Assembly (NCBI GenBank): GCA_016840425.1
Contig: JAEOSI010000102.1
Span: forward strand, 1-7,726
Origin: Candidatus Wukongarchaeum yapensis
GTDB taxonomy: Archaea > Asgardarchaeota > Wukongarchaeia > Wukongarchaeales > Wukongarchaeaceae
Reading direction: 5' to 3'
DNA: 7,726 bases
The notes under the pieces are model-generated. The model was given only the letters and a program-made list of their open reading frames with translations, was not told the DNA's origin and made no database searches. Positions 18 to 7,422 of the stretch are shown here, piece by piece (the first letter of the stretch is position 1; every line of letters begins with the position of its first letter). The position numbers and the translations under genes are program-made.

Positions 18-1265
18 TCAAGCGCCGAACTTTTTTGATCTATTGATCAGATCCAAGATTATGGGCATAACTTCTGTACCTTTTATTCTTCCAAGCATTC
101 CTTTGCTCATCTCTTTTTCAGTGCACTTTTCTGCGAAGTCTTGAAAAACTCTGAGAGTTGGACCCCACATGATTATGGGGGTGGGGTTGGCTGTGTGCTC
201 CGCTATTTCGGTGGAGGTTGTGTGGTCGCTAAGGATGACGAGAAGGGCTTTTGGAGGGATTTTGCTTAGAATTGTTTCGATCATTTTATCCGTTTTTTCT
301 AGGGCGGTTATTTTTGCTTTGTAGTCTTTGTCGTGGGACACTTCATCTGTTGCTTCTATGTGGAGTAGCACGAAGTCATGGTCTTTTAAAGCTGCTACTG
401 CTGCGTTGCCTTTCGCCTCATAGTTTGTATCTATGTAACCTGTAGCGCCTTTAACCTTTATAACGTTCATGCCTGTAAGATAACCGAGACCTTTTATTAG
501 CCCTATTCCTGCAATACATGCGCCTTTAAGCTTCCATTTTGAGTAAAAATCTTCAAGAACAGGGGTTTTTCCCGCACCCCTTGGCATAATGACGTTTGCT
601 GGAGACGTGTTCGCTTGTCGACGAGCAAGGTTTACAGGATGATCCTTTAACACTTCGTAAGTTTTTTTAACAAACTCGTTAACAAGGGCTGATGTTTTTT
701 TTGCTTCCGCATTAGTATTCTCAGGTCTTGCTTCAAGGAGTTTTTTTCCCACTTCCCCTGGATCAACGTCAGAAACATAGGGTGAAAGATCATCACCCCT
801 CAAAACTAAAACACATCGATAATCGGCGCTGTTTCTAAAAATAAACTCTACTGATGGATCAGACAAGCTTATCCTTTCATTTATCACCCTTTCTAGTTCT
901 TCTGTACCTTCACGAATATAGTCTGCTGTACGGTTTATAAGCGTGAAATTCTCATCAACAGTTGCATAGTTGCATCGCAAAGAAATATCTCCAGTTTGTA
1001 AACTCAATCCCGTGCCAGCAGCTTCAATAGGACCTCTGCCAGTATAAACTTTATAAGGGTCATGCCCTAAGATAGCTAAATGAGCAGTATCTGAACCCGG
1101 AAGCTTGCCGGGGCCCAAAGAGTGAAGCAGCCCACACATACCTTCCTTCGCAATTTTGTGTATGTTAGGAATCTCTGCTACCTCGAGGGGAGTTTTTCCC
1201 TCTAGGGTAGAGAGGGGTCTGTCAGCCATTCCATCTATCACGATCATTAGGCATTTTCCTTGCAT
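18..1265 (-). CDS. apgM: 2,3-bisphosphoglycerate-independent phosphoglycerate mutase, archaeal type (415 aa)
   Basis: Motifs DGMADRP, GKTPLEVA, PGSDTAH (catalytic Ser), YTGRGPIEAAG, HIEATDEVSHD, SDHT and the C-terminal KFGA. Start moved from the track's TTG at 1361 to the ATG at 1265: it has a GGTGA SD 5 nt upstream and a TATA box further up, and the first 32 track residues precede the conserved N-terminus. Confidence 0.93.
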   Translation of the reverse strand: MQGKCLMIVIDGMADRPLSTLEGKTPLEVAEIPNIHKIAKEGMCGLLHSLGPGKLPGSDTAHLAILGHDPYKVYTGRGPIEAAGTGLSLQTGDISLRCNYATVDENFTLINRTADYIREGTEELERVINERISLSDPSVEFIFRNSADYRCVLVLRGDDLSPYVSDVDPGEVGKKLLEARPENTNAEAKKTSALVNEFVKKTYEVLKDHPVNLARRQANTSPANVIMPRGAGKTPVLEDFYSKWKLKGACIAGIGLIKGLGYLTGMNVIKVKGATGYIDTNYEAKGNAAVAALKDHDFVLLHIEATDEVSHDKDYKAKITALEKTDKMIETILSKIPPKALLVILSDHTTSTEIAEHTANPTPIIMWGPTLRVFQDFAEKCTEKEMSKGMLGRIKGTEVMPIILDLINRSKKFGA

Positions 1266-1418: not shown

Positions 1419-2771
1419 TTAATGCTTTTTTCGGATTTTTGCTATGAAAAAGCCTTCGCAATTTATCTTATCAGGTAGTAATCTTTGAGCTTCAGGCATG
1501 TTAATAGCCGGTTCTCCTAAAAAGGGCTCTGTCCTTTCAAGGTAAAAATCGGGGTGGTTTTGCAGAAATTTCTCTATGATATCCTCATTTTCATTTTTAA
1601 TTATTGAACATGTAGAGTAAACGAGTGTTCCTCCAAGTTTTACTGCTTTTGATACGTGGTTTAAAAGTTTTATTTGAAGTTTTGATATCCACTTTGTGTA
1701 TCTTTTTGTTAATCTCCATTTGTTTTCTGGGCGTGAACCTATCGTCCCACTACCAGTACAAGGAGGATCTAAAAGGATTTTATCAAAAGTTGCTTTAAGG
1801 GGTAACATATTAGCGTCTGCAATTATGAGTGAAGTGTTTTTTACAGTGAAAAGTTTTAGTTTTTTATGAAGTTCTAAAGCCCTCCTTCTCCGTATATCTA
1901 TGGCCACTATACGTCCCCTATTTTGCATTAATTGAGCGATGTGGGTTGTTTTTCCCCCAGGTGCAGCACAAGCATCTAAAACATCATCCTCTGGACTAGG
2001 TTTAAGGACGTGGGACACAAGGGTTGAAGCGAAATCTTGTATGAAAAATAAACTTTCTTTATACCCTTTAACCCTTGGCAGAGGTACTTCTGTTTTAACC
2101 ACATTAAAAACGTCGAGCAAAGGTGTTTTCTCTAACTGCATTCTGTGATCCATTTCGAGAAAAGTATCAGGGCTTATTTTAAGCGTGTTGACCCTTATGG
2201 TTCTTTTTGGAGGTTTTCCAAGGTTAGACATTATGGATTTTGCCCGCGCTTCTCCCCAAACTTCTATCAAATGTTTTACAAGCCATTTTGGCATAAAGTA
2301 TTCCAATGCAAGGACATCATAACGATCCGATGTATTTTCAATTATGGTGGATGGTTGTATTTTTTCTATCCTGCGAGCTAAAGCGTTGATAAGTTGTTTA
2401 TCTTTCTCCTCCATATTTTGTCCTATTGAAACTACGGCCTCATTGGTTGCCAAGGCAGCGGGAACATTTTGAATGTGCATTTGGTAAGTTGCAACCCTCA
2501 AAACATTCAACATAAAAGGATTCAAATCTTTTAATGATTTATTGTTTAAAACTTCTTTTATTATCCTGTCTAAAACGTTTCTCGCTCTGAGAGTTTCAAA
2601 AACAAGGGCATGAACTGCAGAATGAGTTTTCCAGTCTGATATGGCAAATTTTTCAGCCACTTTTTTAATAGCCTGGCGAGCAGATAAACCGCTACCGATT
2701 AACTCGAGACTTTCGGCAGCTATAAACTCCCGGTTAACAGCGTTTTTAATGCTTACCCACTCCCTGTTCAT
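1419..2771 (-). CDS. rsmB: RsmB/NOP2/Sun family RNA cytosine-C5 methyltransferase with N-terminal NusB-like domain (450 aa)
   Basis: SAM-binding motif DACAAPGGKTTHIAQ, motif IV DPPCTGSG and motif VI VYSTCS, with both catalytic Cys present. NusB-like N-terminus (LVFETLR..NVLDRII, LRVATYQM, ATNEAV). Whether the substrate is 16S rRNA or tRNA cannot be determined from sequence. No SD precedes the ATG, so the transcript may be leaderless. Confidence 0.9.
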   Translation of the reverse strand: MNREWVSIKNAVNREFIAAESLELIGSGLSARQAIKKVAEKFAISDWKTHSAVHALVFETLRARNVLDRIIKEVLNNKSLKDLNPFMLNVLRVATYQMHIQNVPAALATNEAVVSIGQNMEEKDKQLINALARRIEKIQPSTIIENTSDRYDVLALEYFMPKWLVKHLIEVWGEARAKSIMSNLGKPPKRTIRVNTLKISPDTFLEMDHRMQLEKTPLLDVFNVVKTEVPLPRVKGYKESLFFIQDFASTLVSHVLKPSPEDDVLDACAAPGGKTTHIAQLMQNRGRIVAIDIRRRRALELHKKLKLFTVKNTSLIIADANMLPLKATFDKILLDPPCTGSGTIGSRPENKWRLTKRYTKWISKLQIKLLNHVSKAVKLGGTLVYSTCSIIKNENEDIIEKFLQNHPDFYLERTEPFLGEPAINMPEAQRLLPDKINCEGFFIAKIRKKH

Positions 2772-2858
2772 ATATAATAGATAAATACAAAAGATAAAAT
2801 AAACATTACGATTGTAAGATAGGAAAATGGGAAACCCTATTAGGTGGAGGCATCTTGT

Positions 2859-3680
2859 TTGGCGACGATGAAGGAGGTGGTCGAGAAGATAGAAGGACTA
2901 TTTTCTCACCACCTTGAAAGACCTATCGGGATCCAGATAGGGGATATTTCGAAAAATGAAATGGAAAAACAAAAGATTTTAAACTGTACTGTTGCTTACG
3001 CCGTTGATCGTGTTTCTGTAACTGAAACACTAAAAAAACATGCAAACTTACTAATACACTACAAAGAGTATAGAAACATGTTTTTGGGCGAAAAATTAAA
3101 CCTCACGAAAGCTTTGATACGGAAAGGTGTCAATCTCTACGCTTTAGGAAAGGCTTTTGATAACGTTAAAAACTTCGGACCCAACACCGATATCCTACAA
3201 AACATGCTAAAAGCGGAGATACAAGAACCAATAATTGCTCAAAATGAGAATAATGTGATAGGTTACGTTGCAAAACTATCTGCACCCACTAATCTTTACG
3301 AAATAGCTACTACTCTAAGTAAAAATATTGGGGAGAACTCCATCATACAAACAGGAGAGAGAAAAAAAGAAAAATCAATAGATTTACTTGCAACCATCAT
3401 AGGATATTCAATAAATTCTGAAATAGTTAATAAATTGATGAAAATTTTAGACAAAGCTTCCCAAGGACTTGCAATAATAGCTTCAAAAATAGGGTATGAG
3501 GAAGCAAATGATCTCCTCAACATAGGAGCAAATATAGTAAAAATAGAGGAACAACCAGCAATAAGTTTGAGCCTAAAAAGGCTTGCAATGAACCTAGATC
3601 TCGAACTAAGATCTTTAGAGGCTAGAGCTTATTACGTCGAATCAGAACGCCTACTTTTCCCCTTCACAGAGAAAGAATAA
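2859..3680 (+). CDS. Divergent NIF3/DUF34 (YbgI-like) fold protein, probably lacking the dinuclear metal site
   Basis: Family-like segments occur in the correct order: GIQIG, ANLLIHYK, KALIRKGVNLYA..AFD, GPN..L..ML, IGYVAKL..P..LYEI, LATIIG, IIASKIGYEEA...GANIVKI. Likely start is TTG at 2859, 8 nt after GGAGG (2846-2850); the open frame begins at GTG 2844 and an ATG at 2868 is also possible. Confidence 0.68.
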   Translation: MATMKEVVEKIEGLFSHHLERPIGIQIGDISKNEMEKQKILNCTVAYAVDRVSVTETLKKHANLLIHYKEYRNMFLGEKLNLTKALIRKGVNLYALGKAFDNVKNFGPNTDILQNMLKAEIQEPIIAQNENNVIGYVAKLSAPTNLYEIATTLSKNIGENSIIQTGERKKEKSIDLLATIIGYSINSEIVNKLMKILDKASQGLAIIASKIGYEEANDLLNIGANIVKIEEQPAISLSLKRLAMNLDLELRSLEARAYYVESERLLFPFTEKE

Positions 3681-4782
3681 AACTAGGATCAGGATCTTGA
3701 GAAAAGGCTTCGTATTCAAGAAAAGTTTTCCAAACCTCGTAACAATCACAAACCGCACCAAGCATTTCTGGATCTTGGTTTAAACTTGTTTTTCTTATAG
3801 CTTGTAAAACCTTTTTATCGCACTTGCCACAATTGTGGGATCCTCTACTTTTTCCTCCTGCAACAGGGTCACAAATAATTCTGTCGACATCGCTTTTTAT
3901 TTTGTTAAAGCTTTTTTTCAAAACCTCTATTATGCTCCAAAGCCAAGGGGGACGATAACTTTTATTTTTCCAAAGTTTTTCAACTAATGTGCCTGATTGA
4001 ACGTTACAAGGATTAAAAGATATGGATTTTGCCCCTACTTTTGAGGCGTCTATTGCCGATTTTATAGCGTCATTTATAGCTTCTTTTTCTGATAAAAAGG
4101 GTGGTTTAATCAAAATGTAAGCTTTTACGCGTGCCTCTCCGTCAATGATTTCATGCACAACTTTAGAAAAATCTTGGAAAGAAAAGCCTTTATTTATACA
4201 CCTAGACCTTACAATATCGTTACTGGTTTCAAGACCTATTCCTACTTCCAGGGTCTTTCCATTTAGGATGTTTACTGTTTCCTCTATTTTTTCTGATGTT
4301 ACATATTCAGGACGGGACTCAACAACGACTTCTGATACATTTTTATACGTAGAGATAGTTTCAAAGATTTTTTTCTGTGCTTCTTTTGAAAGCTCGGACT
4401 CATCAAAGAAACTGCCACTAGTGAATATTTTTAAAGCTTCAAACTCTTTGTCAAGGTTGTTTTTCAAAGTTTTCTCAAACTCGTATACAAGTTTTTCACT
4501 ATCGCATACACTTTTAGCACCATATTTTACTGCGTCGTTTATGTAACCGCACATAGAACAGCCGCCGCTTTTTGAAAGAGCCCATGAACATCCCTTTGTT
4601 GGTAAAATAATGGTTAGAGCCTTTCCAATACCTTTCAATAAACGATCCTGTTCTATCCAATATTTAACGCTTAAAACTTCTTTCTTCTTAATCTTTGATA
4701 AGTGATAGCTTCTTATAGCTTTGATTTCGTTAGAGAAATCGGGATCTTTTAGGCTTCTTGTCTCAAAATTTTTTACTGACAT
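3664..4782 (-). CDS. raSEA: Archaeosine biosynthesis radical SAM protein RaSEA (TIGR01210-type, 372 aa)
   Basis: IILPTKGCSW...GGCSMCGY, KIFTSGSFFD, VESRPEY, IGLETSND, YILIKPPFLSEKEAI, YRPPWLWS and C-terminal RGSHNCGKCD...CDC. Lies 2 nt downstream of arcS on the same strand. Confidence 0.92.
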   Translation of the reverse strand: MSVKNFETRSLKDPDFSNEIKAIRSYHLSKIKKKEVLSVKYWIEQDRLLKGIGKALTIILPTKGCSWALSKSGGCSMCGYINDAVKYGAKSVCDSEKLVYEFEKTLKNNLDKEFEALKIFTSGSFFDESELSKEAQKKIFETISTYKNVSEVVVESRPEYVTSEKIEETVNILNGKTLEVGIGLETSNDIVRSRCINKGFSFQDFSKVVHEIIDGEARVKAYILIKPPFLSEKEAINDAIKSAIDASKVGAKSISFNPCNVQSGTLVEKLWKNKSYRPPWLWSIIEVLKKSFNKIKSDVDRIICDPVAGGKSRGSHNCGKCDKKVLQAIRKTSLNQDPEMLGAVCDCYEVWKTFLEYEAFSQDPDPSFILSL

Positions 4783-4784
4783 TT

Positions 4785-6752
4785 TTAGGTTTCATCCTGT
4801 TTATTTTTGCGTCTTATCCGCACAGCAGGACCCTTCTTTGCCATCACCATCTGTTTACCGCTTAAAACAGCTTTTCCCACGGCTAAAATGCGCCTATCTT
4901 TATTCACGATAAAAACTTCATCTTGGGGTCTTATTTGCTTATCAGCTTCAGATACGGCGACACAGTAAAGTGTTCCTCCCTCTATCTTATTACCATCAAA
5001 TTCCACGAAATAAAAACCTTTTTCAACCAACTTCTCTCCCCCCAAAAAGGTTAGGGCAAGTAAACCGTCCTCAGGGACAAGAGTGGCAACTTGTGCGTTA
5101 TTTATAAAAAACCGTTGAACACGGGGATAATTTCCCTCAACTTTTATTCTCATACTTGGGGGGAGGAGAATGTTTCCCACACCACTTCCAAACTGAAAAT
5201 CAGCAATCATCCTACCCCTGCCTATATGAAAAAGATTAGGATTAGAAACAGCATTATTTCGATCTTTTAAAGCCTCGTATACTGCACTTTTTAGCCTTTT
5301 TAAAGAGCCTTCAGCCTTCGGAGATTCACCGTTTAAACAGGTAAATTCAACATCTCTACTCAAATAATCTGACGCCTCCCTAACAATTTCTGCATAAACC
5401 CCATCAACGTGAGCAAGAAAATGGACATCTTCCCCAAAATTGCTCAAATAATTGCCCATTACTTCGGTTACTGTCTTTTTTTCTTCCCAGTCCCAATGCC
5501 CCGTCACCGGTATTTCATACTTAGAAGCAGGGTAAGTCAGTTCAAGCTCCCTTGGAACAACTCCCAAGGGAGAAGTTAAGATGATCTCGTGTACCATTTT
5601 GATCTTTTTCCTTGCTCCTCCTTTTATAGATCGAAGGAAAAACTTGTGAGACTTTGAAAAAGAGTAGGGTTTTCTAGCAGAACATGGCAAAATCACGACG
5701 ATTTTTACATGTTTTGGAGGCTTACACCGTTCAATAATTCTTTTTCTCCATCGTTTAACCATAGGACGATAAAGAGAATCTGAACTAGAGCATAAAAAAA
5801 CAGACTTACGACGAACTGGAATAGCCTCTTCTACTTGACTGGAATAATTTGAATCACGATCAAGAATGCGAAGCGCCCCCTTAATAGAGGGTGAGGCGTG
5901 TGTTATTGCCTCCACGCTTTCCCTGAAAACCTCTCCTCGGATATCCTCTCTGATCGATCTTATCTCGCTCTTATAAACCGAAAGATTGTGGGCAAGTAAA
6001 AACTCAAAAATTTCCTCTCTACTATGTTTAAAATCTGCATTTAGGTCAAAATTTTCACAATGAGTACAAGGACATGGAAGCTCCTTCAACCCTTTAAAAT
6101 CAAGGACTTTACTAAAAGTTAAGTAATTTTTTTGACTTGCAGCAATATATGCGACGGAATCATCAAAAATGTCCACTCCGAGATAGGAAAGAAAACGCAT
6201 AAAATAAGGAGGGATAAAGGAGCTTAAATGGAGGACGGAATCGGGGGTGCAGATGTTTTTAATAACGCCAACTATTATATCAATCATTTTACGAGGATTC
6301 TTTAATAAACTAGAAACTCTTTGAAGTATAAAATACCTTAAACCTAATTTAACGGCTTCTTTTAGAAGATAAGAAATTTTAGAAGGCTCTAAATTACAAG
6401 GTACGGGAAAAGCTAAATCTTGAGCATCAAATAACTTTTTTTCACAAATTAAATTCTTTACAAGGTTCAAAAGATTAACAACGTCTCCCTCGAAATTTAG
6501 AGAAGGAATAGTATACAAAAGGTCTGAATTTTTTTCGGTCTTAATTAAGGCGGGTGAGGAAGATCTAAAATTTTGAGGAATTAGTACTTTTAGGGGGTTT
6601 TCTGAATCATCTCCTACCCTCCATAGATTTTCAAAAATCGATGGATGAGCAATACAAGGCGTCAAAAAACTGTTTCTATTTAAGTAAATCTTACCGATTC
6701 TTGCCAATCCATCCAATTTATGTGCCTCAAAATAAAAATCCTGAGAGCTCAA
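4785..6752 (-). CDS. arcS: Archaeosine synthase ArcS (TgtA2): TGT-like N-terminal domain with Zn site, catalytic domain and C-terminal PUA domain (655 aa)
   Basis: Signature PCSARKPYSFSKSH matches PCx3KPYx2Sx2H. Also DGLARIG/TP N-terminus, GVDIFD, CPCTHC...HN zinc site, TSPLGVVPRELE, YEIPVTGHW, and PUA segment ADKQIRPQDEV..AVGKAVLSG. TTG start preceded by GGCGG. Confidence 0.92.
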   Translation of the reverse strand: MSSQDFYFEAHKLDGLARIGKIYLNRNSFLTPCIAHPSIFENLWRVGDDSENPLKVLIPQNFRSSSPALIKTEKNSDLLYTIPSLNFEGDVVNLLNLVKNLICEKKLFDAQDLAFPVPCNLEPSKISYLLKEAVKLGLRYFILQRVSSLLKNPRKMIDIIVGVIKNICTPDSVLHLSSFIPPYFMRFLSYLGVDIFDDSVAYIAASQKNYLTFSKVLDFKGLKELPCPCTHCENFDLNADFKHSREEIFEFLLAHNLSVYKSEIRSIREDIRGEVFRESVEAITHASPSIKGALRILDRDSNYSSQVEEAIPVRRKSVFLCSSSDSLYRPMVKRWRKRIIERCKPPKHVKIVVILPCSARKPYSFSKSHKFFLRSIKGGARKKIKMVHEIILTSPLGVVPRELELTYPASKYEIPVTGHWDWEEKKTVTEVMGNYLSNFGEDVHFLAHVDGVYAEIVREASDYLSRDVEFTCLNGESPKAEGSLKRLKSAVYEALKDRNNAVSNPNLFHIGRGRMIADFQFGSGVGNILLPPSMRIKVEGNYPRVQRFFINNAQVATLVPEDGLLALTFLGGEKLVEKGFYFVEFDGNKIEGGTLYCVAVSEADKQIRPQDEVFIVNKDRRILAVGKAVLSGKQMVMAKKGPAVRIRRKNKQDET

Positions 6753-6870: not shown

Positions 6871-7422
6871 TTAGATTTCTTCGAGTTTTTTAAGGGCTTT
6901 TAATATTTCAGAACGTTCATCATCAGCCCCTTCGACTCCAAACTCTGGAAAAGTAGGCGATTGGGGAACAGGTGTTTCAGGCTCCGAAGTAGGAGGTGTA
7001 GATGGTGTGGCAGGTTTTGTATCCATAGAGGGGGGAGGAACAGTGGGGATAGACGGCGAAGTTGTAGACGTGGAAACAGAAGGAGTTGTCGATACAGCGG
7101 GGGAAGGTTTCACTTCGGGCGCAGGAACGGTAGGGAGAGGAGCAGGTACTTCAGGCACAACACCTACCTCTGAGGACGGTTCTTTTACCATAGTTTCTCG
7201 TGGCGCTAAGGTAACAGGGGGATAGATTGATGGCTTTTTTTCTGATTTTTCAAAAGTGATCATCCTTTGTTCTAACTCGGAGAGTTTTGACTCTAACCTG
7301 CTAAGCCTCTGATGTATCTCTTTAAAAGCTCCTTTACTAGCTTCGGAGAAAATTCTTAGGGTTTCAAGCATTTTCTGGGCCAGTCTAGAATCTATTTCCG
7401 TTTTTTCTTTTTTCTTTCCCAT
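6871..7422 (-). CDS. Hypothetical protein (183 aa): N-terminal helix and coiled coil, Pro/Ser/Thr-rich linker, acidic patch and C-terminal amphipathic helix
   Basis: ATG with GGTGG SD 9 nt upstream (7432-7436). Regular heptad F33-I36-L40-L43-L47-L50-M54-F57. 28 Pro in residues 64-159. Ends EGADDERSEILKALKKLEEI. No family recognised. Confidence 0.85.
   Translation of the reverse strand: MGKKKEKTEIDSRLAQKMLETLRIFSEASKGAFKEIHQRLSRLESKLSELEQRMITFEKSEKKPSIYPPVTLAPRETMVKEPSSEVGVVPEVPAPLPTVPAPEVKPSPAVSTTPSVSTSTTSPSIPTVPPPSMDTKPATPSTPPTSEPETPVPQSPTFPEFGVEGADDERSEILKALKKLEEI

Follow-up and report, generated by a model that had tools for sequence, protein, structure and literature searches.

Proteins of the NIF3/DUF34 family are widely conserved and their function is unsolved. 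The archaeal member HcgD has been proposed to act as an iron chaperone. For the family as a whole, the metal site has been called highly conserved and a role as metal chaperone or insertase has been proposed (PMC8469502). The active site of HcgD has been solved in both the oxidised and the reduced state (PMC8469502), MJ0927 binds DNA in vitro, both single- and double-stranded (PMC4163360), and bacterial NIF3 genes (COG0327) cluster with trmK (COG2384, ranked 6th in Table 3 of PMC8469502). Here, these systems are compared with a NIF3/DUF34-like gene of the Asgard archaeon Candidatus Wukongarchaeum yapensis, carried on a stretch of 7726 nucleotides (nt) with a G+C content of about 38% (contig JAEOSI010000102.1, hereafter the window). 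With somewhat more confidence than doubt, its product is read as a NIF3-fold protein without a dinuclear site that acts by binding, probably together with the RsmB-like RNA methyltransferase encoded beside it or with the RNA of that enzyme.

The frame of the NIF3-like gene is open from 2844 to 3680 on the forward strand (278 codons) and offers three in-frame starts, GTG at 2844 (278 amino acids, aa), TTG at 2859 (273 aa) and ATG at 2868 (270 aa), giving a coding sequence of 2844, 2859 or 2868 to 3680 that is supported by the list of open reading frames (ORFs) and by PF01784. A Shine-Dalgarno-like sequence, GGTGGAGG, lies at 2843-2850 (+), 8 nt upstream of TTG 2859, and GGAGG is kept in four orthologous loci; gene calls in the public protein cluster are 270, 273 and 277 aa long, of which the 273-aa call, apparently the window's own, fits TTG 2859. 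Residue numbers below follow the 278-aa translation unless 270-numbering is stated.

Membership of the family, as the first-pass annotation had proposed from the letters, is borne out by profiles and predicted fold alike. PF01784 matches residues 9-234 over profile positions 3-218 of 256 (36.2 bits vs a cut-off of 23.4, E 6.6e-9), and a query-free profile of eleven canonical Asgard NIF3 proteins matches the window protein at 6e-16 in an unfiltered whole-genome search; only hhalign and the Asgard profile extend over the C-terminal quarter. The NCBIfam equivalog model TIGR00486 (YbgI_SA1388) fails, with 26.9 vs 130.55 bits. An AlphaFold2 (AF2) monomer model built from a 26-sequence family alignment has a mean predicted local distance difference test score (pLDDT) of 86.6 and a predicted template modelling score (pTM) of 0.86, and the model comprises the two interlinked alpha/beta domains of the NIF3 fold. 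Its best fold matches in the PDB and Swiss-Prot are all NIF3 proteins (TM-score 0.67-0.77, probability 1.0), among them YbgI, HcgD/MJ0927, SA1388, SP1609, XynX and TTHA1606; the top 18 PDB matches are chains of solved NIF3 proteins (TM 0.67-0.76), and NIF3 accounts for 30 of 30 Swiss-Prot matches. Escherichia coli YbgI (1NMO/1NMP) shares the two-domain alpha/beta fold with the model (1nmo_A, TMq 0.76, TMt 0.83), and YbgI, TTHA1606 (2YYB) and SP1609 (2FYW) belong to the same Pfam family and are similar in length to the window protein. At the sequence level, identity to solved and Swiss-Prot NIF3 proteins is 12-20%, the HH, H, H and E ligands are replaced, and the DxxxTGE motif is lost. Used as a profile, the Asgard NIF3 alignment finds its best sequence match in MJ0927/HcgD (4IWG, 3WSD-3WSI), an archaeal protein of the same size which, unlike the window protein, keeps all ligands.

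The loss of ligands can be followed residue by residue. Identical ligand mappings were obtained with MAFFT (26 sequences), L-INS-i (31 sequences) and hhalign, the last being a profile-profile comparison of the query clade with the canonical set (probability 97.3, E 2e-11). Solved structures anchor the register, since a profile made from the family alignment hits MJ0927/HcgD at 9e-46. In all three alignments Y73-K74 (3060-3065, +) replace the His-His ligand pair. Further along, G102 to D106 (3147-3161, +) replace the HxxxD of YxxHxxxD, where the His is lost (G102, codon 3147-3149) and both Y99 and D106 (codon 3159-3161) are kept. The alignments also place LAIIASK (3468-3488, +) at the Dxxx(T/S)G(E/D) motif, and E236 to I240 (3549-3563, +; codons 3549-3551 and 3561-3563) in place of the HxxxE ligands. 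The earlier count of four replaced ligands out of five, with the Asp retained, therefore agrees with three alignments, its residue numbers being exact, and its conclusion that the canonical dinuclear site is unformable is upheld. From these residues it appears that the protein cannot form a His-rich dinuclear centre, and a protein without such a centre would not work in the manner of YbgI/HcgD, whether as metalloenzyme or as metal chaperone. An orthologue is publicly annotated as "Nif3-like dinuclear metal center hexameric protein", a name that misleads where the ligands have been stripped away.

What the first-pass annotation overlooked is that ligand loss is not peculiar to the window gene and is part of a series across Asgard archaea. 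With ligand strings read in the order H1 H2 H3 D H4 E, and Asgard families denoted by number (the window belongs to f1), the full HHHDHE was found among the first 26 Asgard sequences only in f3 and f15, the other type-A copies having between 1 and 6 replacements. The series runs from HHHDHE in f15 through HHHLRE in f8, HYHDSE in f10, HRHAQE in f12 and YHHL(H/Q)E in f13 to YKGDEI in f1, and on to YDPTYI in f30, YTPTLA and FTPITI in f29, LFDLLT in f23, and VLSVFL and similar strings in f4. Most copies of f29, f30, f23 and f4 keep none of the six ligands (two f4 copies, in genomes G071 and G025, retain the H4 His). Total His content, a measure that needs no alignment, is 1 in f30, 2-3 in f29 and 3-4 in f1 vs 6-11 in f15. 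Since the ligand set passes from intact through partial to none within one linkage group, erosion of the site is widespread in Asgard archaea and not unique to this gene, and the window gene is one stage of a repeated or progressive erosion. In a tree of the RsmB-like proteins, strongly degenerate NIF3 forms fall in at least 3 separate places.

Two comparisons within the Asgard archaea frame this series. At the canonical end, the f15 NIF3 genes (G028 and G049) are, like the window gene, divergent from an RsmB-like gene, and their products have the same length and can be aligned with the window protein from end to end; the two differ in sharing about 20% identity and in carrying YKGDEI and 4 His (window) vs HHHDHE and 6-11 His (f15). 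At the eroded end, copies in f4, f23, f29, f30, f6 and f5 and the Ranarchaeia protein MHA1916915.1 resemble the window protein in that their ligands are mostly or all lost, their ORFs are intact and they are mostly single-copy, and those of f4, f23, f29 and f30 are likewise linked to RsmB. However, the replacement residues of these ligand-stripped copies differ from those of the window protein, no specific sequence relationship is detectable, and the f4 copies are co-directional with RsmB whereas the window gene is divergent from it.

The neighbour in question, on the opposite strand at 1419-2771 (-), encodes an RsmB/NOP2-type RNA 5-methylcytosine (m5C) methyltransferase with a NusB-like N-terminal and a methyltransferase domain (PF01189, 3e-54; NF011494, 330 bits vs a cut-off of 319). 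Asgard NIF3 profiles were run over the flanks of RsmB orthologues at 38 loci in 17 families: 23 of the 38 loci have a NIF3-like gene no more than 2.6 kilobases from RsmB, and at 21 of them the two genes are directly adjacent. This linkage occurs in 10 Asgard families (f1, f4, f8, f10, f12, f13, f15, f23, f29 and f30), and adjacency persists where NIF3 proteins have diverged below 20% identity. The complete window order, in which RsmB and NIF3 diverge and NIF3 converges on the archaeosine genes for RaSEA and ArcS, recurs in one other family, f8 (G008); in G002 (f2), too, RaSEA converges on NIF3. In f4, in 8 of the 8 genomes checked, NIF3 lies on the same strand as RsmB and immediately upstream of it, with gaps of -9 to 62 nt, so the two genes have stayed adjacent through a switch in orientation. 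In position, therefore, the window gene is orthologous to canonical Asgard NIF3. The RsmB-like gene of f13 is shorter and more distant (4e-43). In f10, the RsmB gene next to NIF3 (G010:C275:6319-7587, L043) has 2 in-frame TAA codons inside the match, which could reflect a pseudogene, an assembly error or recoding.

Detection bears on how absence is to be read in these lineages. A genome search with the Pfam model found NIF3 in only 2 of 27 f4 genomes and missed the window's own gene in one run; since Asgard profiles recovered f4 NIF3 beside RsmB in 8 of 8 genomes checked, Pfam-based calls of NIF3 absence in Asgard archaea are unreliable. The phyletic co-occurrence of NIF3 (Pfam) and RsmB was negative at first, which is partly such a Pfam miss; even so, there is no strict co-occurrence. 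Among described systems a parallel is yqfO-trmK of Firmicutes, where NIF3 stands, as in the window, beside an RNA methyltransferase gene; TrmK, however, is a tRNA 1-methyladenosine-22 (m1A22) enzyme and not of the RsmB/NOP2 type, and bacterial YqfO, unlike the window protein, keeps the dinuclear site and has a PII-like insert. By analogy, the trmK clustering and the DNA binding of MJ0927 may be taken as a loose precedent for a binding role related to nucleic acids.

The first-pass annotation had also taken the gene to be maintained rather than decaying, and the check for constraint among orthologues agrees. Orthologues share 81-97% identity. Pairwise Nei-Gojobori ratios of nonsynonymous to synonymous change (dN/dS), calculated over four orthologous loci with the same neighbourhood and 81-90% protein identity, are 0.23-0.43 for the NIF3-like gene, 0.19-0.25 for the RsmB-like gene, 0.15-0.27 for RaSEA and 0.11-0.15 for apgM, the phosphoglycerate mutase gene of the window. 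The synonymous excess in the NIF3-like gene is significant in every pair (p 2e-4 to 3e-7, the pairs not being independent), and the ORF is free of frameshifts and stops in all of about 20 cluster members and at the 4 loci. The gene is therefore under real constraint, although none of its neighbours is constrained so weakly. Sequencing runs from 11 studies contain at least half of the window's sampled words; there is no RNA dataset among the runs listed as matching the window DNA.

The NIF3-like protein would keep its two-domain fold and a dimer contact and work by binding. Most probably, judging from synteny, it would serve the RsmB-like methyltransferase, or the RNA substrate of that enzyme, as an oligomeric partner or platform. 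The partnership with RsmB is favoured because ten Asgard families have kept the two genes together even as the metal site wears away from complete to missing, and the retention of eroded copies beside the gene of an RNA methyltransferase across many lineages of Asgard archaea indicates that retention needs no metals. The scaffold or RNA-binding cage put forward in the first-pass annotation would draw a little indirect backing, on its RNA side, from the conserved RsmB neighbour. The homohexamer of the family is a trimer of dimers; in prediction of the homodimer alone the window protein scored 0.45, vs 0.00 for the best of 3 controls, and among solved proteins 20 of 30 one-chain pairs and 1 of 23 single chains reach the mark used for this score. 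Contact agreement between runs was at least 91% and partner pLDDT at least 84. Former ligand positions, namely K66/E67 and E228/Q229 in 270-numbering, form part of the predicted interface. As far as can be judged from the sequence, K74, near D106 and E235/E236, may fill the old metal pocket by means of a salt bridge. The isoelectric point (pI) of the protein is 6.9, near neutral, with no obvious basic surface signal, and the scan of pI and charge gave no signal of nucleic-acid binding.

Several points weigh against this reading. First, the confident fold model depends on alignment with canonical members: AF2 run with six close orthologues alone collapses to a pLDDT of 35, and the fold evidence is thus not independent of sequence homology. 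Second, the pass in dimer prediction may stem from solved NIF3 dimers that the model has memorised; because such dimers exist, the pass is to be taken as likeness and not as proof. Third, the link to RsmB comes from gene neighbourhood alone, and the linked families are related to one another, which means that ten families do not amount to ten independent events. Orthologues of RsmB occur with no adjacent NIF3 in f7, f16, f18, f21, f24, f27 and f28, and NIF3 occurs without this RsmB in f3, f6 and f9; each gene is thus found without the other and neither strictly requires its partner. Fourth, the dN/dS of the NIF3-like gene is the highest in the neighbourhood and some relaxation is possible. Finally, D106, E235, E236 and Y73 could together hold one hard metal ion.

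The alternative that survives best, itself improbable, is that the protein is a neo-functionalised enzyme with a remodelled pocket of Y73, K74, D106, E235 and E236 that either is metal-independent, as a Tyr/Lys/carboxylate set, or holds a single hard metal (Mg, Mn or Ca). All five residues are invariant in six orthologues, and a change of function would fit the long stem branch that leads to the window clade in the NIF3 tree (2.6 changes per site) and the purifying selection that came after it. However, some 74% of positions do not vary at all in this shallow set of orthologues, and the invariance of five sites therefore carries little weight. Moreover, the f4, f23, f29 and f30 copies have unrelated, mostly hydrophobic residues at the pocket positions and no new common site, and the predicted dimer interface takes in K66 and E228 (270-numbering). 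The window clade falls within an 11-row group made up entirely of degenerate-site proteins (support of 96 in the Shimodaira-Hasegawa-like approximate likelihood-ratio test, SH-aLRT), a grouping to which long-branch attraction may have contributed.

The isolation of the lineage is evident in sequence searches as well. Phmmer with the single protein found no match among PDB sequences, which the family profile alone reaches. A word-indexed search of 5.8 billion clustered proteins returned close orthologues only, to which a profile of degenerate members added only 262-aa proteins of the G002 type. Searched against 301 Asgard genomes, the profile of the window clade matched its own genus only (G000, the window's genome, and G001); weak additional matches (L037-L040) are not NIF3. 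In an exhaustive phmmer search of 1.84 billion representatives at E<=0.001, one real distant relative was found, the Ranarchaeia NIF3 protein P0009 (24% identity), which is itself partly degenerate (HLGEYV); the other distant match, P0008, is a spurious repetitive protein. An IS605 OrfB/TnpB-like gene, called in two pieces, lies directly upstream of P0009 (L033 6962-7897). The NIF3 proteins of f13 (L013, L014 and L019) have Tyr-His instead of His-His, and the window protein also has Tyr first. Eukaryotic NIF3 proteins carry Y-H at the first ligand pair (PMC8469502); a link to NIF3L1 through a eukaryote-like Tyr at the first His position is unsupported, there being no eukaryotic sequence in the exhaustive search or among the top fold matches.

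It is less likely still that the gene is a functionless relic, drifting under weak constraint and kept beside RsmB by inheritance only. Such a view could draw on its dN/dS, the highest of the four genes compared, on its extreme divergence, with P0009 as the one distant relative in the exhaustive search, and on the several Asgard families that appear to be without NIF3 by the Pfam model. Yet that dN/dS is significantly below 1, about 20 cluster members and 4 loci are without frameshift or stop, and adjacency to RsmB has outlasted both the change of orientation in f4 and divergence to below 20% identity; the apparent absence of NIF3 in f4 is a Pfam miss and not a loss.

There is only a slim chance that the ligands have shifted and the site is still dinuclear, with H72 or other His or Glu residues in the pocket. 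H72 (3057-3059) is indeed one register before the HH position, as had been pointed out in the first-pass annotation, and E235/E236 and D106 are near the former site. The three alignment methods nevertheless agree on ligand loss, and H72 is variable, with Asn in both P0003 and G001 and Cys in P0006. The window protein has 4 His in total and its G001 orthologue 3, and those invariant among orthologues are H23 and H66 only, neither of which is aligned to a ligand position.

The NIF3-like gene is the sole NIF3/DUF34 family member in its assembly. No second NIF3 of either Asgard type was found in the window's genome (92% complete, 277 contigs) with the Pfam model, a second-type query or an unfiltered six-frame hidden Markov model search, nor in the sister genome G001 (87% complete) with the Pfam and second-type searches. 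The second Asgard type has intact or near-intact HH, H, D, H and E ligands, a different N-terminus and a match to Pfam positions of about 25-250; it occurs at L025 1372-2226 (G009) and L024 (G002:C10) and was not found in the window's genus. In G002, which belongs to the same order as the window's genome, it coexists with a degenerate type-A copy, and other f9 genomes than G009 have a degenerate type-A copy. The earlier suggestion of a non-catalytic, regulatory subunit in mixed hexamers with a canonical NIF3 paralogue could appeal to these genomes, in which degenerate and intact types coexist in G002 and both occur within f9, but it is barely credible here and is left unsupported by the finding of a single NIF3 gene in a 92%-complete genome.

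The remaining features of the window are as follows. The spacer between the divergent RsmB-like and NIF3-like genes (2772-2858) is short and AT-rich, only 72-96 nt in the window and 95% conserved over the four orthologous loci; the NIF3-like gene forms its own transcription unit, which limits the argument from linkage, and the spacer presumably carries the promoters of both flanking genes. A scan for bacterial promoters and terminators, which is unsuited to archaea, gave no match in the window, and tRNA and Rfam scans of the window found none. Downstream, the gene for RaSEA, the archaeosine radical-SAM (S-adenosylmethionine) subunit (3664-4782, -; TIGR01210, 375 bits), converges on the NIF3-like gene, their 3' ends overlapping by 17 nt. 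Upstream of RaSEA is ArcS, the archaeosine synthase alpha subunit (4785-6752, -; NF040592, 444.8 bits vs a cut-off of 440), and a gap of 2 nt separates arcS from raSEA, which make up a tight pair; the pair is found in G008 at L041 8798-11877. An orphan of 183 aa (6871-7422, -) has a coiled-coil-like N-terminal part followed by a long Pro/Thr/Ser-rich stretch; this Pro/Thr-rich protein matches no Pfam or NCBIfam family, and its counterpart at the same position in the orthologous loci is a 178-aa ORF. At the other end, a profile scan identifies a cofactor-independent phosphoglycerate mutase of archaeal type (apgM, 18-1361, -). The mechanical ORF begins at a TTG about 33 residues ahead of the onset of homology (residue 34-36), and orthologue calls of 409-418 aa place the true start probably at about window 1256-1265. 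A second, more distant RsmB/NOP2-family paralogue is encoded elsewhere in the window's genome (G000:C91:3282-4592; 36% identity, 214 bits).

The only literature found that names NIF3 and Asgard archaea together, a paper and its preprint, concerns a thyX neighbour, and no published description of an Asgard NIF3 protein without a metal site was found. The terms "degenerate", "non-catalytic", RsmB and COG0144 are absent from PMC8469502, and a neighbour of the RsmB/NOP2 type is not listed among the known associations of NIF3. The Asgard proteins provide natural "site knock-outs" that are under selection while being the sole family member in the genome, and a set of positional orthologues whose sites are eroded to graded extents, in which a metal-independent function is directly testable with a few recombinant proteins. 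Beyond a role in binding lies a more specific and rather doubtful proposal, that in Asgard archaea the RsmB/NOP2-type m5C methyltransferase has the NIF3-like protein as a partner that needs no metal and serves as an adaptor, an RNA platform or an assembly factor. If this were true, the conserved role of at least this branch of NIF3/DUF34 would be in RNA modification or ribosome biogenesis and not in metal insertion, and the dinuclear site would be dispensable for that RNA-related role.

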